From Dehalococcoidales bacterium (lineage in GTDB: Bacteria > Chloroflexota > Dehalococcoidia > Dehalococcoidales > RBG-16-60-22), in contig JAQTMM010000002.1 of assembly GCA_028714335.1 (NCBI GenBank), forward strand, positions 1-60,841: a stretch of DNA of 60,841 bases, written 5' to 3'. How positions within the stretch are numbered: position 1 is the stretch's first letter; each line of letters opens with the position of its first letter. The position numbers were made by a program, and so were the translations under genes. Below, one piece after another: positions 7,133 to 60,111 of the stretch. A model generated the notes under the pieces. It saw only the letters and a list, made by a program, of their open reading frames with translations. It was not told where the DNA came from and did not search any database.

Positions 7133-8104
7133 TTAATCATTACGCATGCATTTAGCCAATACAATAGCGCCGAGGACGCCCGATAAGGCGACGTCCGACT
7201 TTTTGTTAACGAGAGCGGGCCGGACAATATAGCGGCGGAACTTTACCGGAGAATCCAGGGCAGAGATATATCCGCCGAGCAGTTTTTCAACTTTTCCCTG
7301 CACCTTTTCCAGCAAACCGGGGTGGCCCATAATTCCGCCGCCTAATATAATGCGCTGGGGGGATAATGTGCATATCAGATTGTACACTCCCAGAGCGATA
7401 TAGTTGGCTTCAAGTTCCCAGGCGCGGTGGTAGTCTTTATCGTTTTTAAGGATTTTTTCCGGCGGTTTGCCCCAACGTAACTGCATGGCTTTACCGGATG
7501 CTAAACCCTCCCAACAACCATAGCCTGCTACGCATTTGTGAAACCGGCACGAACCTTTAAAATCCTGAATATCGTCTTTATCGAGCGGTATTCTGATATG
7601 TCCCATTTCCGGGTGAACAAGACCGTGCATCAAGCCACCGTTGATTACGCCACCGCCACCGATGCCCGTCCCCAGTGTAATGTAAATAAACGTATCCAGC
7701 CCTTTAGCAACTCCCCATTCCTGTTCGCCTAAAGCAGCACCATTAACGTCGGTGTCTATAGCCACAGGAATACCAAGAGCGTCACTTAACTTTCCTGCAA
7801 GATTAACATTACTCCAACCGGGTTTGGGTGTTTTAGTAATGTAGCCGTGTTTAGGTGATTTTTTATTAAGGTCGAGGGGACCAAAGGAAGCAATGCCAAG
7901 TGAGGCTATGCGTTTTTTTGCGTCTATATTGGTATAGGACTTAAAGAATTTAATAACTTCTTCAATGGTCTTTTGGGGTGTGGTAGTCTCGATACGTTTA
8001 ATAATCAAGTCTTGGGGGTTAGTGCCAACAGCGCAAATGAACTTTGTGCCGCCAGCCTCGATGCCACTATAAATTTCATTTGGGGATTTCTGTAAACGAA
8101 CCAT
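7133..8104 (-). CDS. ROK family sugar kinase (fructokinase/mannokinase-like)
   Basis: 323 aa with an N-terminal GIEAGGTKFICAV ATP-binding motif. It has the ROK Zn/His region EMGHIRIP...CRFHKC..GCWEGLASG. Confidence 0.8.
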   Translation of the reverse strand: MVRLQKSPNEIYSGIEAGGTKFICAVGTNPQDLIIKRIETTTPQKTIEEVIKFFKSYTNIDAKKRIASLGIASFGPLDLNKKSPKHGYITKTPKPGWSNVNLAGKLSDALGIPVAIDTDVNGAALGEQEWGVAKGLDTFIYITLGTGIGGGGVINGGLMHGLVHPEMGHIRIPLDKDDIQDFKGSCRFHKCVAGYGCWEGLASGKAMQLRWGKPPEKILKNDKDYHRAWELEANYIALGVYNLICTLSPQRIILGGGIMGHPGLLEKVQGKVEKLLGGYISALDSPVKFRRYIVRPALVNKKSDVALSGVLGAIVLAKCMRND

Positions 8105-8177
8105 TTACTGAATTGTAGCTAATATCGTACTTCTTGACAACATACAAAGCCCACCGCTAATATTTCTATAAGTAATC

Positions 8178-9761
8178 ATGAATATTAAAGCTGGTTATCC
8201 CAAATGGCTGGACCGGGCGGTTTTTTACCAGATTTATCCTCAAAGCTTTTACGATACCAACAACGACGGCATCGGAGATATACCGGGGATAAATGAAAAA
8301 CTGGATTATCTGCAGTGGCTGGGCATCAACGCAATATGGATTAATCCATGTTTCGTGTCGCCTTTTCAGGACGCCGGTTACGATGTTGCAGACTACTATA
8401 AAGTCGCGCCGCGCTACGGCACTAACCAAGACTTGTATAAACTCTGCCGGGCGGCGCACCGGCGGGATATTAAAATCTGCCTGGATTTGGTGGCGGGGCA
8501 TACTTCTATCGAACACCCCTGGTTTAAAGCCTCCTGCAACCCTAAACAAAATAAATATTCCGACCGCTATATCTGGACAATTCCTAGTAAGCCTATTACC
8601 GACTTTCCGTTAACCCTTGTCAAGGAGCATGCCCCGGGAAAAGGCGATTATATCGCCAATTTTTTCAACTTCCAACCGGCTTTAAATTACGGATTCGCCA
8701 AACCGGATAAAGACCAGCCCTGGCAGCAGCCGGTCAACGCGCCGGGGCCGCTGGAGGCGCGTAAAGAATTAATCAAGATAATGAAATACTGGCTTAGCCA
8801 CGGCGTTGACGGTTTCCGCGTAGACATGGCCTTTTCACTGGTGAAACTTGACCCGGGACATAAAGAGACAATTAAGCTCTGGCAGGACATCGCCCAGAAA
8901 GTGCGTGCGGAATATCCCGAGGTGGTTTTAATCGCCGAGTGGGGCAACCCGGAAGAATCCATCGCCGCCGGCTTTGATATCGACTTCATGATGCACATCG
9001 GGGTGGAGGGCTACGGCGCATTAATGCTCAACGAAAACTGTTTCTTCCGCCGTAACGGCGGCGGTAATATTGAGGAATTTCTTAAAGTCTACTTTACGCA
9101 AACCAAGAAAACAAAAGGCAGGGGTTTGATATCTATTCCCAGTGCCAACCATGATTTCAAGAGGCCGTATGCCGACGACAGGACAGCCAACGATCTAAAA
9201 GTTATATTTACATTTTTACTGACCTGGCCGAGTATGCCCTTTATCTATTATGGAGACGAAATAGGCATGCGCTATATCCCTAAAATGGAATCTAAAGAGG
9301 GAGGCTTCGGACGCACCGGCACCCGTACGCCGATGCAATGGGACAACACGAGAAATGCGGGTTTTTCTAAAGCCGAAAAAACCCAATTGTACCTGCCATT
9401 AGACCCGCGGAAAAACCGTCCGACGGTAGAAAAGCAGGAAAATGAATCGGGGTCGCTGTTAAACCACGTCCGCAAACTTATCGTTTTAAGAAAAAACTCC
9501 CCTGCCCTGCAAGCCTCAGCAAAACTCACACCTTTGCCGGTTAAAGCCAGCGACAGACACTTTGCTTATTTACGCGAGTCCGACAGCGAGAGATATCTCA
9601 TCGTGCTGAATCCATCAGCCCAACCAGTTGAGGCAAGGCTAAACGTAACAAAGCCTGGTAACCTGACACCCCAAATTTGCCGCGGCGTTAAGGCTAACGT
9701 TGCAGGCGATGTTATTCAGCTTAATATGGGCGGAATTTCTTACGGTGTCTTTAAACTGTAA
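8178..9761 (+). CDS. GH13 alpha-amylase family glycosidase (alpha-glucosidase/oligo-1,6-glucosidase-like)
   Basis: 527 aa with the N-terminal segment AVFYQIYPQSFYDTNNDGIGDIPGI..LDYLQWLGINAIWINPCF. The catalytic regions are present: VDGFRVDMA, LIAEWG and SANHD. Confidence 0.85.
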   Translation: MNIKAGYPKWLDRAVFYQIYPQSFYDTNNDGIGDIPGINEKLDYLQWLGINAIWINPCFVSPFQDAGYDVADYYKVAPRYGTNQDLYKLCRAAHRRDIKICLDLVAGHTSIEHPWFKASCNPKQNKYSDRYIWTIPSKPITDFPLTLVKEHAPGKGDYIANFFNFQPALNYGFAKPDKDQPWQQPVNAPGPLEARKELIKIMKYWLSHGVDGFRVDMAFSLVKLDPGHKETIKLWQDIAQKVRAEYPEVVLIAEWGNPEESIAAGFDIDFMMHIGVEGYGALMLNENCFFRRNGGGNIEEFLKVYFTQTKKTKGRGLISIPSANHDFKRPYADDRTANDLKVIFTFLLTWPSMPFIYYGDEIGMRYIPKMESKEGGFGRTGTRTPMQWDNTRNAGFSKAEKTQLYLPLDPRKNRPTVEKQENESGSLLNHVRKLIVLRKNSPALQASAKLTPLPVKASDRHFAYLRESDSERYLIVLNPSAQPVEARLNVTKPGNLTPQICRGVKANVAGDVIQLNMGGISYGVFKL

Positions 9762-9770
9762 GGCAACCGC

Positions 9771-11297
9771 CTATATAATTCCGTCCCAGGCTTTGCGTTC
9801 ACTATCGTAAGGGGCGGCTTCAACACGGCAATCTTTATCAAGAATCATTGTATGGCGTTCGCTACCGTAAACCGGCCATTTACCAATGCTCTCGCACGAA
9901 GGGTCGCCGGTGTGGACGAAAGCCAGCCAGGCATCCTGCATACACGTCGCCAGCTTTTCAGCGTCAGGCCCGGCGCCCGAAAACATCTCTATGAGGTTGC
10001 CAAAGACGAAGCTGATTTCCAATCCGTGGCAAGCCCCCAATACACCACCCATCGCCGGAGATTTCCAGGTGAAGAGGTAGTTGTAGGCGCTTTGTTTGTT
10101 GGCCTGCTGCGCTTCGATGAGCCTGACGCCCGGCATCCTGAACATCAAGTCGCCGAAGATAGCGGTAAATAACTCGGCGGGGGTGGTGGATTCACCGCGC
10201 TTGGCGCGGGTTTCACGGTAAGCCGACACCAACGATTTAGCCGCATCCGCAGACATTACGTTACCAAGACGCTTAAGCACCTCCGCTTCGTCAATCTGGT
10301 CAAAACCCGGCTCCATCATGGTAAACAACTTCCATTCGTTAAGGTTGGAGCCAACAAGGGTCTTGATTTCTTTGGAGTAGCCCTGTTTGGCCGATTCAAG
10401 AACGTCGGTGGGGATATTTTCTTTATCCACGACGGGCACAGTGACGGTGACTTCCGGATTTTTGCATTTACCGCGCCGGCTGGCTACTATTTTCTTTTCT
10501 ATTTCCAGAAGTTCGGGCGGAGTGAGGGCATTTATCTTGTCTATATCGTCACTCTTCAGCCCGGCCATTTCCAGGAAAAGCTGGGCGTTGAAATTCGCTT
10601 CATCAGCCGTAATAGCAAAGCCGCCGGAACCGCTTTCCAGAATACCTTTCTGGAATAGCCCCCTGGCGGCGGGCATCGCCATCAGGCAGCCGATGGACAT
10701 GGCGCCGGCAGATTCTCCGAAGACGGTAATATCATCCGGGTTGCCGCCAAAAGCGGCGATGTTATCCTTAATCCACTTAAGCGCCAGAACCTGGTCGAGC
10801 AGCCCTTCATTACCGGTAGAGGGTATTTTCCCGCCGGTAATATCTTTAAATCTGAAAAATCCCAGCATACCCAGGCGGTAGTTGATGCTTACCATGACGA
10901 CATTGCCGCGCTTGGGATAGACTCCGGTATCATACGAAGGGTCGGCGCCGGAGCCTAAAGTGAACGCGCCGCCGTGAATCCAGACCATCACCGGGCGTCG
11001 GGCATTATCAAGCCCGGGCGACCAGATATTAAGGGTGATGCAGTCTTCCGACTGGGGGGGCTGGGGCACCTGCCCGAAAGCGCCCATCGGCATGATAGTC
11101 TGGGGGGCGATGTTGCCAAAGTCCTTGGCTTTTTTAACGCCTTCCCACTGTTTCACCGGCTGGGGCGATGCCCAGCGTAAAGCGCCTACCGGAGGCTCGG
11201 CGTAGGGAATACCTTTAAAGATATATAGGTCGTTAACATAGTTGCCTTCCACTTTACCGGATTTAGTAGTTACAACAGGATTGGCTTTCTCTTTCAT
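9771..11297 (-). CDS. Type-B carboxylesterase (para-nitrobenzyl esterase-like), copy 1
   Basis: 508 aa with FKGIPYAEPPVGALRW, WIHGGAF and the nucleophile elbow FGESAGA. It is co-directional with the GRE gene and lies 39 nt downstream of it. Confidence 0.85.
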   Translation of the reverse strand: MKEKANPVVTTKSGKVEGNYVNDLYIFKGIPYAEPPVGALRWASPQPVKQWEGVKKAKDFGNIAPQTIMPMGAFGQVPQPPQSEDCITLNIWSPGLDNARRPVMVWIHGGAFTLGSGADPSYDTGVYPKRGNVVMVSINYRLGMLGFFRFKDITGGKIPSTGNEGLLDQVLALKWIKDNIAAFGGNPDDITVFGESAGAMSIGCLMAMPAARGLFQKGILESGSGGFAITADEANFNAQLFLEMAGLKSDDIDKINALTPPELLEIEKKIVASRRGKCKNPEVTVTVPVVDKENIPTDVLESAKQGYSKEIKTLVGSNLNEWKLFTMMEPGFDQIDEAEVLKRLGNVMSADAAKSLVSAYRETRAKRGESTTPAELFTAIFGDLMFRMPGVRLIEAQQANKQSAYNYLFTWKSPAMGGVLGACHGLEISFVFGNLIEMFSGAGPDAEKLATCMQDAWLAFVHTGDPSCESIGKWPVYGSERHTMILDKDCRVEAAPYDSERKAWDGII

Positions 11298-11336
11298 GAT
11301 ATTCTCCTTTACGATGCTTTACTGAGAGATATATTA

Positions 11337-13778
11337 CTAACAACCTTGTTCACTACGGTAGATAATGTCGTCCTGGATTTCCGGAGAAAGCATGACGAAG
11401 TAAGCGCTGAAACCCCCCACCCTGACCACCAAATCACGGTGCTTTTCCGGATGTTCTTTAGCGTCGAGCAGTTCTTTTGTATCCACCATATTGTACTGGA
11501 TATGCTGCCCGCCATTCTTAAAGAAAGTATCGGTCAGTATTGCCAGCTTCTCACGGCTTTCCGGCGTCTGCATGACGGTGCTGGAAAACTTCTGGTTGAG
11601 GCACGAGGCATACGATTCTTTAAAGCCCGCTTTAAGCGCCGACCGGATAACCCCGGTGGGACCTAATTTATCCATGCCGCGCATCGGGGATATCGAGCCG
11701 TCGTTCAGAGGTTCTTTGGATTTTCTGCCGTTAGGTAAAGCGCCTACGCCAAGACCGCCGAAGTAATGCCATGACAGACCTTCGCGTGAAATTTTACAGG
11801 GCACGTCGAAGGGGTTTTTATACGCCATGATAACGCTACCGGAAAACTGCCCAACTTCCTTAACCATCAAGTCGGCTTCCTCTATATCGTTACCGAACTT
11901 TGGCGCCGCTAGGCACATCTGCCGGATTTCCTCGCCTTGGTCTCCGGCAAAGTTGCTGTCAATAGCGCTAAGTAACTCGTCCATTGTTAGCTTTTTCTCG
12001 TCGAAGACCAGGTGCTTAATCGCCGTAAAAGAATCCGCCGCGTCAACGATAGCGCGGTCGCTAATGCCGTAGCTGTGGTCGGCGGCAGTGATAAGGATAT
12101 CCCGCCCCTTTTCCATACACGAAGGCCCGGCGATGCAGGAGTTAAACGGAAATCGTAGATATTTAGGCTCGACGCTCTGGGCTAAAGTGCCCATCCACAA
12201 TACACGGTTGACGACATATTTATATTCCTTCTTGAATGCCTCGTACAAATCGTTAAAACTTTTAAAGTCACGTGGGTCGCCGACGTCAATGCCGACTTTT
12301 TTGCCGGTTATCTGCGACACGCCGCGGTGCAGCGTCAGGTCGAATAACAGGGCGACGTTGACCGCCCCTTTGCCTTCGCTGCCGTTATGGTCAACCTTGG
12401 TGGGGAGAATGGGGGTTACACAGCCCTGCCCGTACCATTCCCTGGCGTCGCCGGCGGGTGTTCCATCATTGATAAAGCTGGACACAACATGGTCGCTGTT
12501 CTCAAAGAGAGGAATGCCTCCCTTGGTTTTATAGTTAGTCTCCAAAGCCTTCAGCAATAATGAGCGCGGCGTTCCTGAATGCCAGTTAAGCAGAACAGTC
12601 GGCGAAGATATCTTAATCAAGCCTATCAGGTGGAGCACCAAATAGCTTAAAGTATTGGTGGCGTCTTTGCCCATCCTGTCCACACCACCGAGGTTGATGC
12701 TGTTAATGCAAAAACTAAACTGATGGGTTTCCAACTGTGTTTTACCGACGGGGAGGACAACTTTCATGCCCCAGAGTATCAAGGCGCTGCCTAATAATTC
12801 TGCCGCCCGTTCCAGAGTTAGACGCCCGTCCTGGAGATCTTTTTCCAGATACGAACCCAGATACTGGTCAACCCTGCCGACCAGGAGCGGATACATGGCT
12901 TCCAGCCCCCGACCGACCATGATGAAATTCATTAACTGCAAAGCCTCGTGGAAGGTTTGCGCCGGATTTTCCGGGACGCGTTCGCAGATGCCGGCGATTT
13001 CCAGCAATTCTTTCTTTCTATCCGCGTCGGATTCTTTTTCGGCTTTTTGACGCGCCAGTTCGGCATAGCGGCGAGCATAGGTAATCATCGCCTCGCAGAC
13101 AATAATCGCAGACTGCCAGAAATAGAGTTTGTTAACATCATTTTCCTGCATCTCTCCAAAGCTCTTGATGCCGGCTTTGGCTTCTTCGATTAAGCCGCGT
13201 ACGCCTTTGGACAACAGCTTTTCCCACAAGCCCCGGCAAGTAACACCCGGGTAGTAACCGGAATCGGGGGTGGGGTCAGCGCCTTTAGCTTCGGAGATAT
13301 CCTGCGGCCAAGTGTTAAAGACGTCACGCCAAGTTTCAACGACGTAGTCGGGCGCTGTTTTTCCATCAAAGTAACGTGAGCATTTCCTTAATATTTCCTT
13401 ATCTTCTTTGTTTTTAAATTCCATCCAACGGCTTAATTTGTCGGCTTCATCCCAGAGCCCGGCGACGGAATTTCCGATTTCGTCCACAAAAGCCGGCGCC
13501 CCGATGAGGTGCTCCGTTTCTCTGCCGACGATGACGTCGACGTCGTGGATGGCGATGGGAACGCCTTCCAAAACTTTTTTGAATACTTTGGCGCGGCGGA
13601 GTTCGATGTCTTCGCCCTCCGTTTCCTGCCAGGACTCCATCACCAGCCGGGCGCGGTCAACGGAAATCATGCGAGGGGCGCCGAACATGGCGTCCTTAAG
13701 CTGGAAGAGACGCGGGCTTAACGTTAGTTTATTGATTTTTTCTAAGAGTTCTTCGCCGGTATTTGATTTCACAACCAT
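11337..13778 (-). CDS. Glycyl radical enzyme (PFL2/dehydratase-like fold), substrate unknown
   Basis: 813 aa with the C-terminal glycyl radical motif VVRVGGFSAYFVMLSPEIQDDII. A single candidate catalytic Cys sits near residue 453 in WYGQGCVTPILP. PFL2-family helices are present (WQSAIIVCEAMITYARRYAELA, NPAQTFHEALQLMNF). Confidence 0.9.
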   Translation of the reverse strand: MVVKSNTGEELLEKINKLTLSPRLFQLKDAMFGAPRMISVDRARLVMESWQETEGEDIELRRAKVFKKVLEGVPIAIHDVDVIVGRETEHLIGAPAFVDEIGNSVAGLWDEADKLSRWMEFKNKEDKEILRKCSRYFDGKTAPDYVVETWRDVFNTWPQDISEAKGADPTPDSGYYPGVTCRGLWEKLLSKGVRGLIEEAKAGIKSFGEMQENDVNKLYFWQSAIIVCEAMITYARRYAELARQKAEKESDADRKKELLEIAGICERVPENPAQTFHEALQLMNFIMVGRGLEAMYPLLVGRVDQYLGSYLEKDLQDGRLTLERAAELLGSALILWGMKVVLPVGKTQLETHQFSFCINSINLGGVDRMGKDATNTLSYLVLHLIGLIKISSPTVLLNWHSGTPRSLLLKALETNYKTKGGIPLFENSDHVVSSFINDGTPAGDAREWYGQGCVTPILPTKVDHNGSEGKGAVNVALLFDLTLHRGVSQITGKKVGIDVGDPRDFKSFNDLYEAFKKEYKYVVNRVLWMGTLAQSVEPKYLRFPFNSCIAGPSCMEKGRDILITAADHSYGISDRAIVDAADSFTAIKHLVFDEKKLTMDELLSAIDSNFAGDQGEEIRQMCLAAPKFGNDIEEADLMVKEVGQFSGSVIMAYKNPFDVPCKISREGLSWHYFGGLGVGALPNGRKSKEPLNDGSISPMRGMDKLGPTGVIRSALKAGFKESYASCLNQKFSSTVMQTPESREKLAILTDTFFKNGGQHIQYNMVDTKELLDAKEHPEKHRDLVVRVGGFSAYFVMLSPEIQDDIIYRSEQGC

Positions 13779-13803
13779 ATCAACCTCCGTTGGTGGTACT
13801 TAG

Positions 13804-14706
13804 TTATTTTGAAATTGTACACTCTACCCCGTAAGACTCGAATGCTTTTACGATTGATTCGAGGTGCTGTGGCTCGGGCTGGAGGATATCGGGGAGAGGG
13901 TATTTTTTATCTAAAGATTCATACTTACCCTTGCCCAAACGATGATACGGCATTAACTCAACGTGAGGAGCTATTCCCAAGCCTTTTAAAAAGTCTGCCG
14001 TTTCCTTGATGTTTTGCGTATTATCGTTGATGCCCGGAATCAGCGGCATCCTGAAAAGCGTTGCCACACCACTTGCCGCCGTCGCTCTGGCGTTGGAAAG
14101 GATTAACTTGTTAGTTTTGCCGGTATATTCACAGTGCTTGTCCGAATTCATATGCTTGATATCGTAAAGTACATAGTCGGTCAAAGGGAGTACTTGTTTT
14201 AAAGCAGATTCGGTAGCGCAGCCTGAAGTCTCTATGCAGGTGTGGATACCGTCCTTACGGCACTTTTCAAATAATTCACATACCAGTTGCGGCTGCAACA
14301 AAGCCTCGCCGCCGGAGACGGTTACGCCGCCTGACGCCTCGTAAAACATTTTATCGCGTTCCACCGCGTCGTAGATTTCTTCAGCGGTCATCGGTTTTCC
14401 ATAGAGAACAAGCGCTCTATAAGAACACACGTCAACACATTCGCCGCAGCCGTTACAGCGCGCTCGGTCAATCACGGGCAGCTTGCCCTCTTCATAAACC
14501 AATGCGTCGTTAGGGCAGACTCCGGCGCACTTGCCGCATATAGTACAAAGCGCTTTTACCAAGCCTATCTCTGCATGCGGCGAGATGCACTCCGGGTTGC
14601 TGCACCACCCGCACTCAAGACCGCAGCCTTTCATAAAGACAACCGTCCTGATACCCGGCCCGTCGTGAATCGAATACCCCTGGATATTGGTGACCAGACC
14701 TACCAT
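13804..14706 (-). CDS. Glycyl-radical enzyme activating protein (radical SAM)
   Basis: 300 aa with a CGLECGWC (CX3CX2C) radical SAM cluster motif. It has a two-ferredoxin insert (CTICGKCAGVCP, CNGCGECVDVC) and the SAM-binding motif VSGGEAL. Confidence 0.9.
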   Translation of the reverse strand: MVGLVTNIQGYSIHDGPGIRTVVFMKGCGLECGWCSNPECISPHAEIGLVKALCTICGKCAGVCPNDALVYEEGKLPVIDRARCNGCGECVDVCSYRALVLYGKPMTAEEIYDAVERDKMFYEASGGVTVSGGEALLQPQLVCELFEKCRKDGIHTCIETSGCATESALKQVLPLTDYVLYDIKHMNSDKHCEYTGKTNKLILSNARATAASGVATLFRMPLIPGINDNTQNIKETADFLKGLGIAPHVELMPYHRLGKGKYESLDKKYPLPDILQPEPQHLESIVKAFESYGVECTISK

Positions 14707-14729
14707 TAAATGTCATCCCAGATTTTTTG

Positions 14730-15143
14730 TTATTTAAACGGCTCTTCTTTTTTAACGTATTTTGAGGCGATGCTGGTGTGGAAAAGAATGATGGGCTTAT
14801 CTACCCGTTTAAAGACGAGCGGGCAGTGCACCATACCGGCGGGGATGTAGACGCTGGTCGGTTTAGTGAAGGTATGCATTTCCTGCTCCTCGCCCAACCC
14901 GATTACTATCTCCCCGAAGAGCTCATCCATGTTGTTATAATCATAAGAAACAAAGTGCAGGTACATATCAAAGTCGTGGGAATGAGGGGATTCTTCCATC
15001 CGGCACGGCGCCACGACTTTGGTAATCATAAACGTCATATTGGTGTCATAGTCAATATCGCCTATCCATTCCATCGTAGGATACGGTTCCGGCTTGGTTA
15101 CCTTTTTACTGATTACATACTTCCCGTATTTTGAGTCTGCCAT
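14730..15143 (-). CDS. Small cupin-fold protein
   Basis: 137 aa with the cupin-like metal motifs SPHSHDFDMYLHF and YIPAGMVHCP. It sits between the IclR gene and the GRE activase, with 19- and 23-nt gaps. Confidence 0.55.
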   Translation of the reverse strand: MADSKYGKYVISKKVTKPEPYPTMEWIGDIDYDTNMTFMITKVVAPCRMEESPHSHDFDMYLHFVSYDYNNMDELFGEIVIGLGEEQEMHTFTKPTSVYIPAGMVHCPLVFKRVDKPIILFHTSIASKYVKKEEPFK

Positions 15144-15162
15144 TGGTAGAATCCTCCTGTTA

Positions 15163-15987
15163 TCATTTACTTAATACTTTTTTCATGTTGCCGATTTTTT
15201 GTTGAAACACTAGGTGCCCGGCGTCTTTAGAAATAGTTTTAACTGCTTCTACAACCAGGGGGCCATACTGCAAAGTTTCTTTCCCGGAAAAGAAACCGAC
15301 GATTGTGACATAACCGACGGGGTAGTTGTTCTGGTCCAAGATAGGCGCCGCCACGGCGTTCATCCCCGGCTGGATATCACCCAGTTCTAAAGAAAATCCA
15401 CGGCGGCGGCACTCCGCCAATTCATCTAAAAGCTTTTTTTTATCAAATTTCCCCGGAGTGCCGTAAAAGTAGAGGTCTTTACTCTTTAGTAATTCGTCCA
15501 GCTCGTCTTGAGGCAGAAAAGCGGCGATGGCTTTGCCGTGAGAGCCGTAGGTGATGGGGGTGGTGTAACCGATCGGCGAGGAAACACCCATGCCCGGCGC
15601 TCCTAAATACTCGGCGACGGTGAAGGTAACATCTTTAAAAATTACGCCCATTGTCACCGTAGCTTCGGTTTTTTTAGCAAGTTCGTAAAGCACCGGCTCG
15701 GCGAGGCGGGGGAGGCTTAACGTTTCCAACATCTTGCCGGCGAGGGTCACCAGCCCGGGTCCAAGCACATATCCCTTGCGGTTGGGATTCTTTTTCACAA
15801 AGCCGTATGCGTTGAGGGTGTTCAGGATGGAAAAAGCTTTGCTGCGGTGGATGTCCACTTCCTGGCAGATGTCGGTGAGGCTTTTGGGATTGCCGCCGTT
15901 ATCCGCCAGGCAAAGCATAACGCGAATTGCCTGTTCAACCGATGGAACTAGATAAGTGTTTTTCTCCTGCTGGTCATTATCATTCAT
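15163..15987 (-). CDS. IclR family transcriptional regulator
   Basis: 274 aa. It has an N-terminal wHTH (SVEQAIRVMLCLADNGGNPKSLTDICQEVDIHRSKAFSILNTL) and a C-terminal IclR effector domain (GFSLELGDIQPGMNAVAAPI). Confidence 0.85.
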   Translation of the reverse strand: MNDNDQQEKNTYLVPSVEQAIRVMLCLADNGGNPKSLTDICQEVDIHRSKAFSILNTLNAYGFVKKNPNRKGYVLGPGLVTLAGKMLETLSLPRLAEPVLYELAKKTEATVTMGVIFKDVTFTVAEYLGAPGMGVSSPIGYTTPITYGSHGKAIAAFLPQDELDELLKSKDLYFYGTPGKFDKKKLLDELAECRRRGFSLELGDIQPGMNAVAAPILDQNNYPVGYVTIVGFFSGKETLQYGPLVVEAVKTISKDAGHLVFQQKIGNMKKVLSK

Positions 15988-16220
15988 AATAGTTTTCTTG
16001 ATAGAACTTAAGTTTTGTGGATAGAATAACAGAGTGCAAGATTATTGTCAAACTATTGCTTGACTTTCTGCTAGAAAAGAAAGCAAGAAGCCGGTTGCCT
16101 TTTCTCTATTATCTTTTCTTAACTATATTCAGCTGCGATACTTTTCAGCCATATATTGTCCAATATTATGACTTTTGCGTATTGTTTACTAAATATATAT
16201 GCGCAATCATGTAGTATTAT

Positions 16221-16249
16221 TTGACAATATGCACGGATTGCGGTAAAAT
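16221..16249 (+). promoter_or_regulatory. Sigma70-like promoter for the Mo/W oxidoreductase operon
   Basis: TTGACA (16221-16226), a 17-nt spacer, then TAAAAT (16244-16249), about 65 nt upstream of the ATG at 16313. Confidence 0.45.
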
Positions 16250-16312
16250 GGAAACAATATATCAAAAAATATCGTACAGAAAACTTGAAAAGAATAGGAT
16301 AGCTTGTAAATT

Positions 16313-18421
16313 ATGGAGAAGATAATAAAAAGTAACTGCCGGGGCTGTCATGGAGGCTGCGGCGTATTAGTCCATGTTGAAGACGGACGTATCACCAAGA
16401 TAGAAGGCAATCCCGATTTCCCTACTAATCACGGGGTCATGTGCAGCCGGGGGTTGTCCTTCCTTCAGTTGGTATACCATCCCGATAGGGTGACGCATCC
16501 GCTGCGGCGAACCGGTAAACGCGGCGAGGGCAAGTGGGAACAGATTTCCTGGAACGAGGCGCTGGATACCATAGCTGAAAAGTATAAAAAAATAATAGCA
16601 GAGTACGGCGCCGAATCTATCGCCCTGGGTTACGGTACTGGGCGTAATTATGAAGGCTTTTTATATCGCTTCTCCAACCTGCTGGGGACGCCCAATGTAC
16701 TTACCTCCGGCCATATGTGCTATGGGCCGAGGGTTGCCACCAGCGGCATCATCAACGGCAAACTGACTTTATGCGATTATGAAAACAACCCCAAGTGCGT
16801 CGTCGTTTGGGGTAACAACGTCGTCATCAGCAACGGCGATGAATATACCGGTGAGAATCTTACTAAGGCTCTGGCCCAGGGTACTAAACTCATTGTTGTT
16901 GACCCCAGACTCACCTATCTGGCAGGACGGGCTGACGTCTGGCTGCAGCTACGCCCGGGAACCGACGTCGCTTTGGCAATGGGTATGGCGAACGTCATCG
17001 TGGAAGAAAAGCTTTATGATAAAAACTTCGTTGAAAAATACGTTTACGGGTGGGACGAGTTTACCGCCAGGATTAAAGAATACAACCTGGAAAAGGTAGA
17101 AGAAATAACGTGGGTGTCGGCGGATAAGATAAGAGAAGCCGCCCGGCTTTATGCCACTACCAAACCTGCGGGCATACAATGGGGCTGCGCCATCGAACAG
17201 AATATCAACTGCACGGACAGCGTCCGCGCGCTGGTGTCTTTAATGGCAATTACTGGCAACCTCGACGTTCCGGGGGGCAATATCTCTCCAGAATCGCCGC
17301 CATGGCTGCCTGTCAGCCAGTTTGCCATGCATCACGAATTGCCCGCCGAACAGCGTGCCAAACGGCTGGGAGGCGATACGTATAAGCTGGCAGACAGAAT
17401 AGCCGTAATTACCCCCAAGGTCGTCTGGGACGCTATTCTGACCGGCAAGCCCTACCCTATTAAAGCGGTACAGATTCACGGTTCCAACCCGGTTATCACG
17501 CGGTCTAACGCCGCCGAGGTTTATAAGGCTTTAAGCAAACTCGATTTTTTAGTTGTGGCTGATTTCTTCCTGACGCCTACAGCCGAACTGGCCGATATCT
17601 TTTTACCGGCGGCAACCTGGCTTGAGATGGAAGACATCGGTGATTACTGGAAGCGCCAGAACTATATCTACCCCAGAACTAAAATCATCCAGGTCGGCGA
17701 ATGCCGTTCGGACCATGAGATGTTCCTGGAGCTGGGGAAAAAGCTGGGGCAAAAAAACCAGTGGTTCGATACCGTAGAAGGCAACCTCGACTATATCCTC
17801 AAGCCGATGGGGCTTACCTGGCAGGAGTTCCGGCGCCTTGATTACTATAGGGTATCGCAAAAATACCGTAAATATAAGACCGAAGGCTTCCGTACGCCTA
17901 CCGGCAAGGTCGAGCTTTATTCAACCATTATGGAGAAATGGGGTTACGACCCGCTGCCCATTTACCGCGAAACGCCGGAAAGCCCGGTCAGTAAACCGGA
18001 AATGGTCAAGGATTATCCCTTAATCCTGATAACCGGAGCCAGGTCGCCCGTTTTTTACACCTCCGAGCACCGTATGATTCCCTGGTTAAGGGAAATCGTC
18101 CCCGACCCTATCGTCGAGATACATCCAAAAACAGCTGAAAAACTGGGAATCGGTAATCACCAGTGGGTTTACATCGAGACGCCGCGCGGCAGAATCAAGC
18201 AGCGGGCTTTACTCACCACCGGCATTAATCCCGGTGTGGTAGCGGCGCAGTACGGCTGGTGGTTCCCCGAGGAAAAAACCCCGGGGCACGGCTGGGAAAA
18301 ATCAAACGTCAATATCCTTACGGATAATGATACCAAAGGTTATGATGTGGCGATGGGCGCAGACAACCTTAGAGTATTGATGTGTAAAATATACCCGACT
18401 GGAGATAAAGATGAATCCTAA
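16313..18421 (+). CDS. Molybdopterin (Mo/W-bisPGD) oxidoreductase catalytic subunit, cytoplasmic
   Basis: 702 aa with an N-terminal 4Fe-4S motif (CRGCHGGCGV...C at approximately residue 44). There is no twin-arginine signal peptide. A candidate metal-ligand Cys lies in GHMCYGPRV. The protein reads as DMSO-reductase-superfamily throughout. Confidence 0.85.
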   Translation: MEKIIKSNCRGCHGGCGVLVHVEDGRITKIEGNPDFPTNHGVMCSRGLSFLQLVYHPDRVTHPLRRTGKRGEGKWEQISWNEALDTIAEKYKKIIAEYGAESIALGYGTGRNYEGFLYRFSNLLGTPNVLTSGHMCYGPRVATSGIINGKLTLCDYENNPKCVVVWGNNVVISNGDEYTGENLTKALAQGTKLIVVDPRLTYLAGRADVWLQLRPGTDVALAMGMANVIVEEKLYDKNFVEKYVYGWDEFTARIKEYNLEKVEEITWVSADKIREAARLYATTKPAGIQWGCAIEQNINCTDSVRALVSLMAITGNLDVPGGNISPESPPWLPVSQFAMHHELPAEQRAKRLGGDTYKLADRIAVITPKVVWDAILTGKPYPIKAVQIHGSNPVITRSNAAEVYKALSKLDFLVVADFFLTPTAELADIFLPAATWLEMEDIGDYWKRQNYIYPRTKIIQVGECRSDHEMFLELGKKLGQKNQWFDTVEGNLDYILKPMGLTWQEFRRLDYYRVSQKYRKYKTEGFRTPTGKVELYSTIMEKWGYDPLPIYRETPESPVSKPEMVKDYPLILITGARSPVFYTSEHRMIPWLREIVPDPIVEIHPKTAEKLGIGNHQWVYIETPRGRIKQRALLTTGINPGVVAAQYGWWFPEEKTPGHGWEKSNVNILTDNDTKGYDVAMGADNLRVLMCKIYPTGDKDES

Positions 18422-18869
18422 ATCTAGAAAATTGGCGTTAAGTATCAACAATGATATCTGTGTTGGCTGTTATGCCTGTGAGATAGCTTGCAAACAGGAA
18501 CACAATCTTCCGGTCGGCCCAAGGTTAATCAGCGTCCACCCCGAAGAACCACGGGAGATAGATGGTAAACCGCAACTAAGGAACCGGGTGGAATACTGCC
18601 TTCAATGCATTTCAGCTCCATGCCAAAGCGCCTGCCCGCAAAACGCCATAAGCACAAGGGATGACGGCATCGTTGTTATTGACGGAGAACTCTGCAACGG
18701 CTGCGGGGAGTGCATTAAAGCCTGCACCTTTGGTGTGATGCAGTTCGATGATATAAAGAAGCTCGCCCTAAAATGCGACCTTTGTGTAGAAAGACTGGAC
18801 AAAGGCCTGCAGCCCGCCTGCATAAGCTCATGTCCCAGTCATTGTATTAGTATCAATAAACGGGGCTAG
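18411..18869 (+). CDS. 4Fe-4S dicluster domain electron-transfer subunit
   Basis: 152 aa, overlapping the alpha subunit by 11 nt. It has four Cys groups: CVGCYACEIAC, CLQCISAPCQSACP, CNGCGECIKAC and CDLC...CISSCP. Confidence 0.85.
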   Translation: MNPKSRKLALSINNDICVGCYACEIACKQEHNLPVGPRLISVHPEEPREIDGKPQLRNRVEYCLQCISAPCQSACPQNAISTRDDGIVVIDGELCNGCGECIKACTFGVMQFDDIKKLALKCDLCVERLDKGLQPACISSCPSHCISINKRG

Positions 18870-18894: not shown

Positions 18895-20772
18895 CTATTT
18901 TTTCGGTGACGACTCCCCATAAATGTCTTTGATAACATTTTCAAGGTCGCCTACTCCCCGCAAAGATTCCAGGGTTGGTTTACCCGTTTCCCAATCCCAA
19001 TCTAGAATTCTGTAGAAATTCTTGCCTAAGCGGTCATTATCAACTGTTACACCGGCAACGGGCCCTTCTTTCTGGGGAGGATTACCTAATGACCTTGGAG
19101 GCATGACAAAGTCAGGCCGCCTTAAACCTTCCCTAATATTAAAAGCCTGTCTCATGGTTAGAATACGCTTACCAACGGCAAAGAGGTGACGGGCCTTAAA
19201 CGGCCAGCCGGTTAATGCCTCCATATAGTCGTTATAAGTACCTTCCGGTATAAAATCTTCGGAGAACAGACAGAAACCAGCGGAATTTAAAACTTCCTTC
19301 TTGAAGGTGTCATATACGTCCATAAAACCGGTCCCGTCGTAGTTGTATTCCTCGCCAGTTTTATTATTTTCTTGTATGTGGCCAAGCCCGCCCTTAACAT
19401 GCCGGGCTGGTGTGGGGTCAAATTGGTAGCTTCGCCCAAAACCGGGGGCAAATCTGGGGTCGTGCATAGGAAACTCAACGCCCCGGACGGTCTGTAAATA
19501 TTCGAAACCCTTGCCCCATTTATTTGCGGCTCCCTGCGAGCCTAAAGCCAGCACAGCGCCGCAGCCATCACCGTCTGCCATTTTCTGTGTGATTTTTACA
19601 ATGGCTTCGCTGTTTCCCCATGTTAACTCAATCCCGTCCAGTTCTTCTTTAGAAAGAATGCCCTCATTGTAGCATTCCATCGCCCATGCCACGGTTGCCC
19701 CGGCTGATATGGTATCCAGGCCCATTCTATTGCAAATATCATTGGTTTTGATTAAAGATTCTGCATCAACGTTCAACAGCATACTGCCGAACGCGGAAGC
19801 TGTTTCGTATTCGGGACGGTCTGTCTTACCAACAGGCCATTTGCCCGTATTTACTTCATACTCGGCGCCGCACCCCAGCGGGCAATTCGAGCAAGCGTAT
19901 TTTCCTATTCTGTATTTATCAAGTCCTTGAGAGCTAATGTTTTGAACATTAACTTCGTCATAGTCTATTATGCCGACCCCTCCCCAGTTTTTAACCGGAG
20001 AATTTCCATCCATGGCGGAAATAGTTGTGCCGACTCCCGTGCCAAATCCCCCGAGCATGGTAACGCCTTCTTTCTGCTCGTTTTTCATGTAACTGCTTAC
20101 CCTGCGGTTGATTTCTTGTAGTTTTTCCGGGTTGGCTACAGGTATTTCGGCTTCTCCCCTAACCACGATTGCTTTTAATTTTTTAGAACCCATGACAGCG
20201 CCTCCACCACCCCTCGCCGGCGCGCGATGGCCCTCATTAATCGGGCAGGATATCAAGGACATTTTCTCGCCTGCAGGCCCGATTATTGAAGCCCGGATTT
20301 TAGTATCTCCGTATTCCTCAATCAGGGCAGTTAACGTGTCTTTAGTATCTTTTCCCCACAAATGACTGGCGTCTTTAATCTCGGCTTTGCCATCCTTAAT
20401 CCAGAGATAAACCGGGCTTTTAGATATTCCAGTTACAAAAACTGCATCATAGCCTGCTTTCTTCAGTTCCTTGCCAAAGTAACCCCCGGAATTGGCGTCA
20501 TTCCACCCACCGGTAACCGGAGATTTGCAGACTAAAGTATAACGGGAACCAAAGAAAGCTCCTGACCCTGTCGCCGGCCCCGTAATGAATCCCAGGATAT
20601 TTTCCGGGCCGAGGGGATCGGCTCCCGGTTTCATCATGTCATATAGCAATTTTACGCCTATTCCATAGCCCCCGATGTAGTTCATAGCTAAATCATCGGA
20701 AATCGCTTTCTCTTCTATCTTTTTATTGGTTAGATTTACAAACAGCATTTTCCCCACGTAACCTTTAGCCAT
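18895..20772 (-). CDS. Aldehyde:ferredoxin oxidoreductase (tungstopterin AOR family)
   Basis: 625 aa with the AOR N-terminal segment GKMLFVNLT...YIGGYGIG. The FeS ligand motif CSNCPLGCG is present, and both the AOR_N and AOR_C regions are recognisable. Confidence 0.9.
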   Translation of the reverse strand: MAKGYVGKMLFVNLTNKKIEEKAISDDLAMNYIGGYGIGVKLLYDMMKPGADPLGPENILGFITGPATGSGAFFGSRYTLVCKSPVTGGWNDANSGGYFGKELKKAGYDAVFVTGISKSPVYLWIKDGKAEIKDASHLWGKDTKDTLTALIEEYGDTKIRASIIGPAGEKMSLISCPINEGHRAPARGGGGAVMGSKKLKAIVVRGEAEIPVANPEKLQEINRRVSSYMKNEQKEGVTMLGGFGTGVGTTISAMDGNSPVKNWGGVGIIDYDEVNVQNISSQGLDKYRIGKYACSNCPLGCGAEYEVNTGKWPVGKTDRPEYETASAFGSMLLNVDAESLIKTNDICNRMGLDTISAGATVAWAMECYNEGILSKEELDGIELTWGNSEAIVKITQKMADGDGCGAVLALGSQGAANKWGKGFEYLQTVRGVEFPMHDPRFAPGFGRSYQFDPTPARHVKGGLGHIQENNKTGEEYNYDGTGFMDVYDTFKKEVLNSAGFCLFSEDFIPEGTYNDYMEALTGWPFKARHLFAVGKRILTMRQAFNIREGLRRPDFVMPPRSLGNPPQKEGPVAGVTVDNDRLGKNFYRILDWDWETGKPTLESLRGVGDLENVIKDIYGESSPKK

Positions 20773-20911
20773 ATTTTCTCCTTATCTGTTTATTCTCGTT
20801 ATTTTATCATATTAAGCTAAACAATTTATACTTTATCCCTAACGGTTTGATGCTTCTTCCTAATTGAGTTATAGTTATTCCAGAAATATTACCTCAAAGA
20901 AAAGAGGCTAC

Positions 20912-22309
20912 ATGGAAACGTTAAGAATTGGATTCGTTCCCGCCCACCGCGAACCCTTCGGGGAGGACTGGGCAGTCAAAATGCGCCGCCGCTGCCTAGA
21001 CGCTTTAGCCTCCCACCCCCTCCTTGAAATCGTCGTGCCTGATGAAAAACTCACCCGAGGCGGCTGCGTCCGCGACGACGCCGAAGCGGAAAAGGTCATC
21101 GCTTTATTTCAGGAAAAGAAAATCAACGGTTTGATTATCGGCACTGTTACCTTCGGCGATGAAGTCGCCGCACTTACCGTAGCCTCGGCTTTTCGTGATA
21201 AACCTATTCTCCTATTTGGCACAAAGGAAGGTCCCTTCACTAAAGACGGTAACCGCCTCTCCGATTCGTTTTGCGGCACGCTTTCCATATCTTCCGGCTT
21301 ACACCGCCGCAAGATTCCCTTCCTCTTTGGCGGCATCGTCTTTCCGGAAGAAAAAACCTTTAAAAACACCATCGCCGATTTTGCCCGCGTCTGCGCTATT
21401 TCTCGCGGTTTTATCGGGGCGAATATAGGCTTGGTCGGCCCACGCCCAGAACGCTTTGAGACCTGCATCTTCAGCGAAGACCAATTGATGCGTAAGTTCA
21501 ATCAAAGGGTCATCCCCATTGACCTCGCCGACATTATGAGTATCGCTGCGGCGCAGAAGAACTCTGCAGCAGTGAAAAAACTCGTCGAAAAAACCAAAAA
21601 GCAGACTAAAACGTCCGGCGTCGAAGCCGCTACCCTGCAAAACATCGCCGGGCTGGAATACGCTTTAGAGAAGTTTGCCGCTGGTAAAAACCTTGCCGCT
21701 ATGGGCGTGCAATGCTGGACGGCCATGCAGAGCGTTTACGGCATCTCGCCCTGCTACGCCATGGGCTGTATGACCGATAAAGGCGTGATGACCGCCTGCG
21801 AGGTTGATATTTACGGCGCTTTAACGATGCTCCTCCAATACCTGGCGGCTCTGGGCAAGACCGTCCCGCACTTTATTGACTGGACGATAAAGCACCAGGA
21901 AAAGGAAAATGTATTCCTCGCCTGGCATTGCGGTAACGGCCCGCCCTCTTTAACCTGTAAAGGAGGCGATATAGAGCTTAAATATCACAGCATTTTAGGC
22001 ACGTCTCTTGGTTTGGACCGCTCTAAAGGCACCGGCGAATTTCAGCTCGCCCCCGGCGCGGTGACACTTTCACGTCTGCAGGAGCACGACGGCGAATTCA
22101 AGCTGCTGGTGGCTAAAGGGAAAATCGTTGCCTCCAATCAAAAGCTGCGCGGTTCCTGGAGCTGGGTTGAAGTGCCTGACCTCGATAAACTCTATTCCAC
22201 CCTCGTTAAAGAGGGCTTTACCCACCACGCCTCCTTAATTCACGGCGATTTTTCCAACGCTTTAATAAGCGCCTGCGACTTGCTGGGTATCAAAGTTGTT
22301 GTAGTATAA
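20912..22309 (+). CDS. L-fucose/L-arabinose isomerase family protein
   Basis: The ORF track starts at a TTG at 20864. An ATG at 20912 is preceded by AAGAGG 6 nt upstream, so I prefer that start. The fold looks fucose-isomerase-like (RIGFVPAHREPF..., C-terminal FTHHASLIHGD). Confidence 0.7.
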   Translation: METLRIGFVPAHREPFGEDWAVKMRRRCLDALASHPLLEIVVPDEKLTRGGCVRDDAEAEKVIALFQEKKINGLIIGTVTFGDEVAALTVASAFRDKPILLFGTKEGPFTKDGNRLSDSFCGTLSISSGLHRRKIPFLFGGIVFPEEKTFKNTIADFARVCAISRGFIGANIGLVGPRPERFETCIFSEDQLMRKFNQRVIPIDLADIMSIAAAQKNSAAVKKLVEKTKKQTKTSGVEAATLQNIAGLEYALEKFAAGKNLAAMGVQCWTAMQSVYGISPCYAMGCMTDKGVMTACEVDIYGALTMLLQYLAALGKTVPHFIDWTIKHQEKENVFLAWHCGNGPPSLTCKGGDIELKYHSILGTSLGLDRSKGTGEFQLAPGAVTLSRLQEHDGEFKLLVAKGKIVASNQKLRGSWSWVEVPDLDKLYSTLVKEGFTHHASLIHGDFSNALISACDLLGIKVVVV

Positions 22310-22327
22310 GTTCAAGAAAGGGGAAAT

Positions 22328-23185
22328 ATGTTTAAGTTCGGCGTTGATTCGCTTATCTGGACGGAAGAGTTCACAGAAAAAGACCTGCCGCTGATTGAGA
22401 AGGCTAAATCTTTAGGCTTTGAAGTCATCGACATTAACGTTAGCCACCCCGAGCGCTTTCCCGTCAAGGCTGTTAAAGAAAAAATCAAAGAGGTCGGCAT
22501 TGAGGCGGTCACAACCATCGGTCTCCCCGCCGATTCCAACCCCATCAGCCCTAAGCCGGAAGTCCGGCGCCACGCTTTAGAGACGCTTAAACTAATGGTT
22601 GATATCAACAACGAAATCGGCTCTAAGATTCTGGGCGGTGTTTTATATTCGGCGTGGGGCTATCTTTCCGGCAAGTGCCGCACCGACGAGGAATGGGCAT
22701 GGTCAGTGGCGGCTATGCGTGAGGTTTGCAACTACGCTAAAAACAAAAGCAACTTGATTTTAGCCATCGAGCCGGTCAACCGTTTCGAGACCCACTTTAT
22801 CAACATCGCCGAAGACGCGGTGAGGTACTGTAAAGAGGTGGGGACGGGTAACCTAAAAGTCCACCTCGACGCTTTCCACATGATACGTGAGGAGACAAGC
22901 TACCGCGAGGCTGTTTTAACCTGCGGCAAGGAATATCTGGGCTACATTCACGTCTGCGAGAATAACCGCGGCATACCCGGCACCGGTATGGTGCCCTGGC
23001 AGGAGTTTTTCACCGCCGTCAAAGAGATAGGCTATGACGGCCCCCTCACCATCGAGTCCTTCGACCCCAATTTTGAAGAGCTTAACCGCCTCTGCGCCAT
23101 CTGGAGAAAATTCGCCGACTCCGGCGAGGAGCTGGCGGTAAAGGGGCTGGCGAACCTTAAAAAAATCGAGGCAGCATTAAAGTAA
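22328..23185 (+). CDS. Xylose-isomerase-like TIM barrel sugar epimerase (D-tagatose/D-psicose 3-epimerase-like)
   Basis: 285 aa with a metal-ligand pattern typical of the family: LAIEPVNRFE, HLDAFHM and IHVCENNRG. Confidence 0.75.
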   Translation: MFKFGVDSLIWTEEFTEKDLPLIEKAKSLGFEVIDINVSHPERFPVKAVKEKIKEVGIEAVTTIGLPADSNPISPKPEVRRHALETLKLMVDINNEIGSKILGGVLYSAWGYLSGKCRTDEEWAWSVAAMREVCNYAKNKSNLILAIEPVNRFETHFINIAEDAVRYCKEVGTGNLKVHLDAFHMIREETSYREAVLTCGKEYLGYIHVCENNRGIPGTGMVPWQEFFTAVKEIGYDGPLTIESFDPNFEELNRLCAIWRKFADSGEELAVKGLANLKKIEAALK

Positions 23186-23198
23186 GGTTGAGGCTGAT

Positions 23199-45188: not shown

Positions 45189-45198
45189 AATAAAAGGA

Positions 45199-59237: not shown

Positions 59238-59269
59238 ACTGAAACACCGCCAGACTATACCATATTATA

Positions 59270-60109: not shown

Positions 60110-60111
60110 TA

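Follow-up and report, generated by a model that had tools for sequence, protein, structure and literature searches.

A five-gene cassette of a Dehalococcoidales bacterium encodes a glycyl radical enzyme (GRE) that, judged by its sequence scores, belongs to no characterized family and that is consistently accompanied by a small cupin. The cassette lies at 9771–15987 on the minus strand of contig JAQTMM010000002.1 (assembly GCA_028714335.1), of which we analyzed positions 1 to 60,841, hereafter the window. Five open reading frames (ORFs) follow one another: an IclR-family transcriptional regulator (15163–15987), a 137-aa cupin (14730–15143), a GRE-activating radical SAM enzyme (13804–14706), the 813-aa GRE itself (11337–13778), and a type-B carboxylesterase (9771–11297). 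The gaps between them are 19, 23, 25, and 39 nt in gene order from IclR, and both genes and gaps fall exactly where an earlier reading of this DNA, which we call the original prediction, had placed them.

The explanation that we favor, tentatively and at somewhat less than an even chance, is that this is an IclR-controlled catabolic cassette for an organic acid, with an invariant core made up of a small metal cupin, an activase, and a GRE of an uncharacterized clade. It is already known that many GRE clades lack a function, and Cys loops without Glu are common among them; what is new here is the invariant signature of this family and its obligate cupin.

The glycyl radical enzyme and its Cys loop

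The 813-aa protein carries both domains of the superfamily, PFL-like (4.7e-136) and Gly_radical (4e-27). Its C-terminus, RVGGFSAYFVMLSPEIQDDIIYR, translated from 11355–11423, satisfies the full GRE fingerprint given in a 2026 review, RVxG[FWY]x6-8[FL]x4Qx2[IV]x2R, with R786-V-G-G789-F followed by L797, Q802, I805, and R808 and with SAYFVM, SPEI, DD, and IY as the intervening residues. The radical glycine is G789 rather than G788, as a comparison of 63 relatives shows that G789 is nearly invariant and that position 788 is Ala in most GREs. In GREs the catalytic Cys is carried on a finger loop that, inside a 10-stranded barrel, comes up to the loop of the radical Gly. In pairwise alignments with glycerol dehydratase, CutC, propanediol dehydratase, and the arylacetate decarboxylase AAD, Cys453 falls each time on the catalytic Cys. 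An AlphaFold model built on 64 sequences (predicted local distance difference test score (pLDDT) of 91, predicted template modeling (TM) score of 0.91) places G452-C453-V454 at a hairpin turn between strands 449–451 and 455–457, and G788-G789 at another between strands 784–787 and 790–793; all solved GREs can be superposed on it, with TM scores of 0.86–0.91 at 22–31% identity. Alignment and model thus agree that Cys453 sits at the tip of the Cys loop, the point on which the original prediction had asked for confirmation. That prediction had also spoken of a single Cys near residue 453, which is correct for the loop and not for the protein as a whole, which holds 12 cysteines. It had further raised the possibility that a different Cys followed by Glu occupies the active site; we found no alternative Cys-x-Glu candidate in the GRE that could replace Cys453.

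The superfamily's requirement for a cognate radical SAM activase is answered by the adjoining gene, whose product scores 331.6 bits on TIGR02494 (cut-off 174), has Radical_SAM and Fer4 domains, and shows in translation a CX3CX2C motif and two CX2CX2CX3C motifs; it contains a ferredoxin-like two-cluster insert. Because the Gly789 fingerprint is complete, Cys453 is at the loop tip, and an activase is encoded next door, the GRE appears intact, as had been predicted, and should form a thiyl radical at Cys453.

Against the NCBIfam equivalog models for HpsG, HypD, CutC, HpfG, PflD-type enzymes, IAD, and HPAD, the GRE scores 265–430 bits where the cut-offs are 1000–1150. The eliminase and isomerase models among these (CutC, HypD, HpsG, HpfG, and PflD-type) give 330–430 bits against cut-offs of 1000–1109, and the decarboxylase models give 327 bits for IAD (cut-off 1100) and 266 bits for HPAD (cut-off 1150). 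Even the broad PFL2-3 subfamily model is matched at 459 bits against a cut-off of 678. When solved GREs are ranked by phmmer, CutC, glycerol dehydratase, HypD, propanediol dehydratase, and HpzG lead at about 344–389 bits, followed by AAD (304), MASS (274), BSS (245), HPAD (169), and pyruvate formate-lyase (PFL; 66). Sequence and structure together point to the propanediol and glycerol dehydratases, HypD, HpzG, and CutC as the nearest solved relatives. With all equivalog scores below cut-off, the GRE falls inside no characterized family that shares its loop, the placement that the original prediction had named as fatal to it, and we conclude from these sequence comparisons that it is a member of none.

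Source databases often name members of this family "pyruvate formate-lyase" or "formate C-acetyltransferase". The formate lyases (PFL and TdcE) have two adjacent cysteines in the loop; the GRE has one, in G-C-V-T, and scores only 77 bits on the PFL model TIGR01255 (cut-off 994), and it therefore cannot be a pyruvate formate-lyase. It follows that formate-producing fermentation is wrongly inferred wherever a metabolic reconstruction bases it on this gene.

The Cys loop, G452-C453-V454-T455 (translated from 12414–12425, minus strand), aligns with the GCVE of glycerol dehydratase and CutC, so that Thr455 stands at the position of the loop Glu. This Thr is invariant in 125 of 125 family members, including the copy at 70% identity from Thermoleophilia, and the same 125 sequences also preserve GCVTP, K461, D463, H464, E468, K470, and CKISREGLSWHY, a barrel strand that begins at C661, ends at Y672, and is predicted from translation and alignment to line the active site (11763–11798, minus strand). 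According to the 2026 review, all characterized GRE eliminases and isomerases keep the Cys-x-Glu (CXE) motif; the present GRE lacks it.

The original prediction had called this loop unusual and had concluded that neither the eliminase nor the PFL mechanism is predicted. No characterized family does match GCVT, and both the loop Glu and the second Cys are absent, but the claim was overstated. AAD, a characterized enzyme, has GCVL in the same place. In an exhaustive search of 50%-identity cluster representatives, the 130 nearest full-length sequences have Glu two positions after the Cys in 60 cases and another residue (Q, H, S, D, T, R, N, or G) in 70. The closest other clusters have the loops GCAI (53% identity), GCER, GCSQ, GCLP, GCAH, and GCVN; two unrelated clusters at 33–36% identity again have GCVT; and none of ten such representatives reaches an equivalog cut-off. 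By these comparisons the loop is genuinely different from that of every characterized family, yet typical of many uncharacterized GREs. The review also lists the acidic residue of phenylacetate decarboxylase (PAD) as unknown and invokes no catalytic Glu in the X-succinate synthase mechanism. Together with the GCVL of AAD, these cases mean that a missing loop Glu does not put the enzyme outside known chemistry.

The family is widespread. It comprises more than 120 clusters at 78–96% identity, nearly all from Dehalococcoidales/Dehalococcoidia metagenome bins, with well over a hundred 90%-identity clusters from sediment, aquifer, and peat-type habitats. The GTDB genomes that carry it are Dehalococcoidales and Dehalococcoidaceae metagenome-assembled genomes (MAGs), and the Thermoleophilia copy is likewise from a MAG. 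A literature search for GREs in connection with Dehalococcoidia, cupin, SnoaL, or Chloroflexi returned no description of this family; the 2026 review mentions no cupins, esterases, or Chloroflexi and states that whole clades of the superfamily are still without function.

Conserved gene neighborhood and the esterases

A promoter-like site (16023–16051, minus strand; TTGACA, 17 nt, then TG-TATTCT; 10 of 12 matches in a consensus scan) precedes the IclR start by about 35 nt, and a sequence scan returned no minus-strand terminator-like site between genes of the five-gene cluster. This pattern makes it plausible that the five genes form a single transcription unit. The regulator matches both of its Pfam domains, HTH_IclR and IclR_C, above cut-off; its nearest NCBIfam models, BhcR and PcaR/PcaU/PobR, are reached at about 94 bits, all below cut-off, and no equivalog can be assigned. 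At the other end of the cluster, the 3′ end of the esterase gene is 10 nt from a convergent GH13 gene.

Related loci were collected from GTDB genomes (11, seeded with the GRE), from metagenomes (80, seeded with the cupin), and from several long contigs; the L-numbers used below are labels of these loci. Wherever a cupin of at least 60% identity had room around it, a GRE followed within 6.5 kb (43 of 43 loci), and every GRE of at least 60% identity with room was preceded by the cupin (43 of 43). The two proteins are also conserved to a similar degree, at 70–88% identity for the cupin and 73–85% for the GRE. The original prediction had proposed to check whether cupin, activase, GRE, and esterase are syntenic across genomes, and had counted it as a refutation should cupin and esterase prove not to be conserved neighbors. 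Synteny holds without exception for the cupin; the esterase, present in 11 of the 26 loci with room to judge and in variable positions, answers to that doubt in part.

Two further kinds of gene recur that the original prediction had missed: one for a SnoaL-like protein, the other for uptake systems. A SnoaL-like NTF2 protein (PF07366, 2e-36) directly follows the cupin in 36 of 70 loci, and TRAP DctPQM genes stand between cupin or SnoaL and the activase in about 14 of the 80 cupin-seeded loci, 7 of which also show the GRE. In Thermoleophilia the place of TRAP is filled by a Liv-type ABC system, and an SDR and a SnoaL protein come after the GRE. Of 44 loci, 29 have an IclR gene upstream of the cupin. 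Neither the window nor about 90 related loci contain a gene for an iron-sulfur (FeS) small subunit, and beta-oxidation-like genes are absent from all of these roughly 90 loci. The gene contexts of the nearest other GRE clusters (53–42% identity; GCAI, GCER, GCSQ, and GCLP) include the present cupin in none and have no common theme. SnoaL and SDR genes do recur with a GRE cluster at 44% identity; in one such locus (L103, the context of P0247), a GRE with a GCLP loop is accompanied by two SnoaL_2 proteins, an SDR, a cytochrome P450, a TauD-type dioxygenase, and a pyrroloquinoline quinone (PQQ) alcohol dehydrogenase, a mixture of oxygen-dependent and oxygen-sensitive enzymes.

The last gene of the cassette encodes, as predicted, a type-B carboxylesterase: it matches PF00135 with 1.8e-106 and 357.6 bits (cut-off 27), and a GESAG motif supplies the nucleophile-elbow Ser. 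By eye, with no predictor run, the N-terminus has no obvious signal peptide, and we therefore take the esterases to be cytoplasmic. Two unrelated families, type-B carboxylesterase and Abhydrolase_3, serve in the cassettes. Abhydrolase_3 lies right after the GRE in 8 loci, the type-B enzyme after the GRE in 4 and right before the cupin in 7, and some loci have two esterases (L003, L021, L032, L043, and L044). Orthologues of the window esterase, at 74–77% identity, occupy the same position in L020, L043, and L044, and in about nine other loci type-B copies upstream of the cupin are 47–59% identical to it. The cassette thus has an esterase module that recurs, is optional, and is filled by non-orthologous genes.

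That the esterase is merely adjacent and functionally unlinked, so that only IclR, cupin, activase, and GRE truly belong together, is in our view rather unlikely. Such a reading would account for the 15 of 26 loci with downstream room that lack a cassette esterase, for the variable position, and for the presence in the window of a second, unlinked type-B carboxylesterase paralogue (25110–26621, plus strand; 503 aa, 31% identical to the operon esterase). However, the window esterase is separated from the GRE by only 39 nt with no terminator-like site, and two unrelated families recur on the same strand just upstream of the cupin or downstream of the GRE, in some loci both. That non-orthologous genes replace one another at the same place in the operon can hardly be put down to chance, and this is better evidence for a functional link than the conservation of one gene would be. 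The original idea that an ester is hydrolyzed before the radical step can accordingly be kept for an optional feeder, not for an obligatory first step.

The second esterase of the window has its own neighbors at 20864–24995, namely a Zn-dependent alcohol dehydrogenase (Zn-ADH), an SDR, a psicose-epimerase-like AP_endonuc_2 protein, and a FucIso_C/SftI-like isomerase. Most of this set (COesterase, Zn-ADH, SDR, AP_endonuc_2, and FucIso_C) surrounds the GRE cassette in L017, and FucIso_C alone is found in L016 and L018.

Role of the cupin and the proposed pathway

The 137-aa protein has no Pfam or NCBIfam match. Its AlphaFold model (pLDDT 88) gave 332 Foldseek matches at E ≤ 0.001, and all 50 listed have the cupin fold; they include TM1459, Sthe2323, the MarH epimerase, KdgF, phosphomannose isomerase, and a non-heme iron epimerase/lyase, at TM scores of about 0.55 and 11–19% identity. 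Twenty-six sequences down to 50% identity preserve H54, H56, D59, E86, E88, H106, C107, and H122. The segment from H54-x-H56-D-F-D59 to P-x-G-x-x-H106-C107 (14826–14984, minus strand) is the predicted metal site, so that the fold and the HxH...(D/E)...H motif of the cupin superfamily are both present, and the original assignment of a metal-motif cupin inside the operon is upheld. The wider family holds more than 500 clusters without a Pfam domain, every one named "hypothetical", and a profile search with the cupin alignment added only further unannotated "hypothetical" proteins.

Several of the small cupins in the group of TM1459, KdgF, MarH, and archaeal phosphomannose isomerase carry out enolization-type isomerization, epimerization, or ring-opening of keto acids or sugars, and small cupins and SnoaL/NTF2 proteins in general typically act by enolization-based isomerization, dehydration, or ring-opening of carbonyl compounds. 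Cupins at 56–59% identity to the present one are abundant in loci without a GRE within 10 kb, and paralogues at about 31–38% identity adjoin a third type of esterase (CocE/NonD) and glycosidase-like genes, with tandem fusions among them. For these reasons we read the cupin as probably a catalytic family that was recruited to GRE pathways, not a dedicated structural subunit.

The opposite view, that the cupin is a new type of GRE accessory subunit that stabilizes, gates, or regulates the enzyme in the manner of BSS beta/gamma or HPAD gamma, strikes us as improbable. It draws on the unbroken co-occurrence, in which the cupin invariably precedes the GRE within one operon, on the matching conservation of the two proteins, on a 57%-identity relative that accompanies a very different GRE in L083 and L084, and on the existence of accessory subunits whose metal cofactors have an unclear function. 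Yet the known subunits are of 4Fe-4S or rubredoxin type, transporter and SnoaL genes often stand between cupin and GRE, and the invariant canonical metal ligands with their polar neighbors look like an active site. The many close relatives without a GRE and the paralogues that occur as tandem fusions or beside esterases and glycosidase-like genes also speak against a subunit.

L083 (8421–20131) and L084 themselves combine the 57%-identity cupin with an activase and a distant GRE (34% identity, 896 aa, loop SGCLGY). Also present are an SDR, two small ORFs (88 and 92 aa) without a Pfam match, a KstD/fumarate-reductase-like FAD_binding_2 flavoprotein, a MutL-type protein (PF13941), an NTF2-like protein, and an OYE/Pyr_redox_2 reductase, and the whole looks like a second uncharacterized GRE pathway. 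The cupin family is expanded elsewhere as well, at L023 350–2505, at L051 5432–6325, and about 3 kb upstream of the cassette in L005, L007, and L008. The paralogues take the form of a 158-aa protein, a 312-aa tandem double-cupin fusion, and a 297-aa protein with a C-terminal extension, and others lie beside a CocE/NonD-type hydrolase and an amylase-like protein.

In the pathway that we favor, the substrate would be an imported organic acid, probably hydroxylated and derived from plants or detritus; in some genomes it would arrive as an ester or acetylated conjugate and be freed first by the esterase or esterases. TRAP systems of the DctP type usually carry organic anions. Cys453 would abstract a hydrogen from the hydroxylated carboxylic acid, and elimination or ring-opening isomerization would follow; this class of reaction is favored because the GRE is closer to the eliminases than to the decarboxylases or X-succinate synthases, and because of the gene context. 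The acid/base would be supplied by a part of the barrel outside the Cys loop, with Glu666 as a candidate and Arg665 perhaps holding the carboxylate. The cupin, with or without SnoaL, would perform a metal-assisted isomerization, tautomerization, or ring-opening of the GRE substrate or product. Candidate substrate classes are hydroaromatic or alicyclic acids (quinate or shikimate from chlorogenic-type esters), sugar acids or uronates, and aryl-substituted acids. Genes for aldehyde handling occur nearby, as an aldehyde:ferredoxin oxidoreductase (AOR) in the window and as an Fe-dependent alcohol dehydrogenase with an aldehyde dehydrogenase in L016 and L018.

Three more specific links were considered and dropped: to sulfoquinovose or sulfonates, suggested by a weak SftI-like neighbor, and to pectin or uronates, by analogy with KdgR, KdgF, and KduD, neither with a conserved context; and to quaternary amines, since MttB genes lie downstream in L005 only. 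The L005 arrangement (11061–17716) consists of three consecutive pairs after the GRE, each with a corrinoid/B12-domain-like protein of about 226 aa and an MttB-like methyltransferase (assigned by eye from two translations), and it is not conserved in sister loci.

A bolder version holds that the GRE reaction is of a class new to the superfamily, such as a radical ring-opening, dehydration, or C–C cleavage of a hydroxylated alicyclic, hydroaromatic, or sugar-derived acid, with a non-loop acid/base and in obligate partnership with a previously unannotated metal cupin, whose part would be that of a coupled isomerase or of a new kind of GRE subunit. We regard this as possible but doubtful.

Several observations weigh against the organic-acid pathway. 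In a hand-read alignment, E435, H164, H281, S282, Y339, D447, and Y640 of glycerol dehydratase become T455, C181 (C/N181), Y296, P297, I358, G469, and E666. These replacements led us to reject a disguised diol dehydratase, and with H164, H281, S282, Y339, and D447 all gone an eliminase mechanism would need an entirely different pocket. The predicted pocket lining comes from alignment, and the proposed roles of Glu666 and Arg665 are weakly supported: Glu666 is a candidate by virtue of its alignment with Tyr640 and its specificity to this family, and Arg665 is common to the family and the nearest uncharacterized clusters. Among the 130 representatives, an acidic residue at 666 occurs in 3 of the 70 without loop Glu and in 2 of the 60 with it, and we rejected the idea that such a residue compensates for the lost Glu, as the two are not associated. 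Half or more of the loci have no cassette esterase, so that ester hydrolysis is not essential, and the esterases' nearest relatives, which for the window esterase are the solved Est50 (PDB 2ogt, 354 bits), TfCa, and pNB esterase, are promiscuous and allow no substrate to be deduced. TRAP DctP matches solved binding proteins at best at 7e-21, and the ABC binding protein matches receptors for amino acids, urea, and other ligands at best at 8e-10, both too distant to indicate a ligand. The nearest relatives of the SnoaL and SDR proteins are polyketide-type SnoaL proteins and generic SDRs, which name no substrate. In all, uptake proteins, esterases, SnoaL, and SDR together identified none.

There is some room for a decarboxylase. 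The GRE could be of the AAD/PAD type, acting on an esterase-released acid by hydrogen abstraction or Kolbe-type oxidation without a loop Glu, and we give this little credence. AAD, with its GCVL, ranks fourth in a search restricted to the Cys loop, the uptake systems point to a carboxylate substrate, and the 2026 review describes decarboxylase active sites as not conserved between members, with the PAD acid unknown. Over the full length, however, AAD, the IAD model, and HPAD score below the eliminases, the predicted pocket residues are polar or charged rather than aromatic-binding, and, again by the review, known GRE decarboxylations end amino-acid fermentation and do not belong to inducible uptake-and-catabolism cassettes. 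We find it barely credible that the GRE is a hydroalkylase of the X-succinate synthase type, joining a substrate radical to fumarate: the fold (TM 0.86–0.89) and a class mechanism without catalytic Glu would suit this, but BSS and MASS are among the weakest full-length matches, the FeS subunit and beta-oxidation-like genes are missing, and the polar predicted pocket, transporters, and esterases suggest polar acids, not hydrocarbons.

Surroundings and comparison with known systems

Divergent from IclR, the plus strand encodes a molybdenum/tungsten bis-pyranopterin guanine dinucleotide (Mo/W-bis-PGD) oxidoreductase with an N-terminal 4Fe-4S domain (16313–18421), which is probably cytoplasmic because no twin-arginine leader is seen by eye. 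Its ORF overlaps by 11 nt that of a small poly-ferredoxin subunit (18411–18869, plus strand), and the AOR gene follows on the minus strand (18895–20772). In L001 a Mo enzyme at 43% identity is also divergent to IclR; a link between the oxidoreductase and the cassette is possible. On the other side, a GH13 alpha-amylase-family gene and a ROK kinase (7133–9761) flank the cassette and hold the same position in L004, L009, L020, L033, L043, and L044, which may reflect shared ancestry among close relatives or a carbohydrate link.

Farther away, a bacterial large signal recognition particle (SRP) RNA (45201–45464, minus strand; 183.8 bits) overlaps the 5′ part of the ORF 44313–45362 (GTG start). In view of this overlap and of an RrnaAD methyltransferase match that does not start until residue 80, translation probably initiates at a codon downstream of this GTG. 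A second 813-aa ORF (55869–58310, minus strand) was rejected as a GRE; it is a RecG helicase without GRE similarity, and three tandem DegV-family paralogues come after it (58386–60798, minus strand).

Anoxic sediments, aquifers, and peat contain Dehalococcoidia in abundance, and little is known about what these bacteria use as carbon sources. If the reaction class does prove new, the cassette would give them a route for the anaerobic breakdown of plant- or detritus-derived esters. A GRE that lacks the loop Glu and has a cupin as its obligate partner would widen the architectural and mechanistic range of the superfamily. The regulator, binding proteins, esterases, and cupin are all workable in air and offer handles on the substrate.

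Among known systems, the glycerol and 1,2-propanediol dehydratases (PDB 1r8w, 5i2g, and 9rco) are the best structural matches (TM 0.88–0.91; 359–369 bits) and share with the present GRE the fold, the Gly fingerprint, the Cys-loop position, and the activase type; they differ in being only 28–31% identical and in having Glu435 where it has Thr. CutC (389 bits, the top phmmer match), HypD (366), and HpzG (344) are similarly close, with a TM score of 0.90, whereas they and HpyG keep CXE and none has a cupin partner; on the CutC and hydroxyproline-type equivalog models the GRE reaches 408–423 bits against cut-offs of 1050–1100. AAD (PDB 7e7l) resembles it in its Glu-less loop and, according to the 2026 review, in needing no FeS small subunit, but matches at only 304 bits overall, has a pocket that is not known to be related, and works in amino-acid fermentation rather than in an uptake-and-esterase cassette.

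The BSS beta/gamma, HPAD gamma, and MASS beta/gamma/delta subunits are, like the present cupin, small, metal-binding, encoded beside the catalytic subunit, and obligately co-inherited. As the original prediction had noted, they are iron proteins and not cupins: they have folds like those of high-potential iron-sulfur proteins (HiPIP-like, 4Fe-4S) or rubredoxin folds with Cys ligands, in contrast to a cupin with predicted His/carboxylate ligands whose relatives also occur without any GRE. With TM1459, KdgF, MarH, and archaeal phosphomannose isomerase, the cupin shares the fold, the HxH...H motif, and a length of about 110–140 aa; at 11–19% identity to these small metal cupins, and with no Pfam match, it represents a separate, unannotated family.

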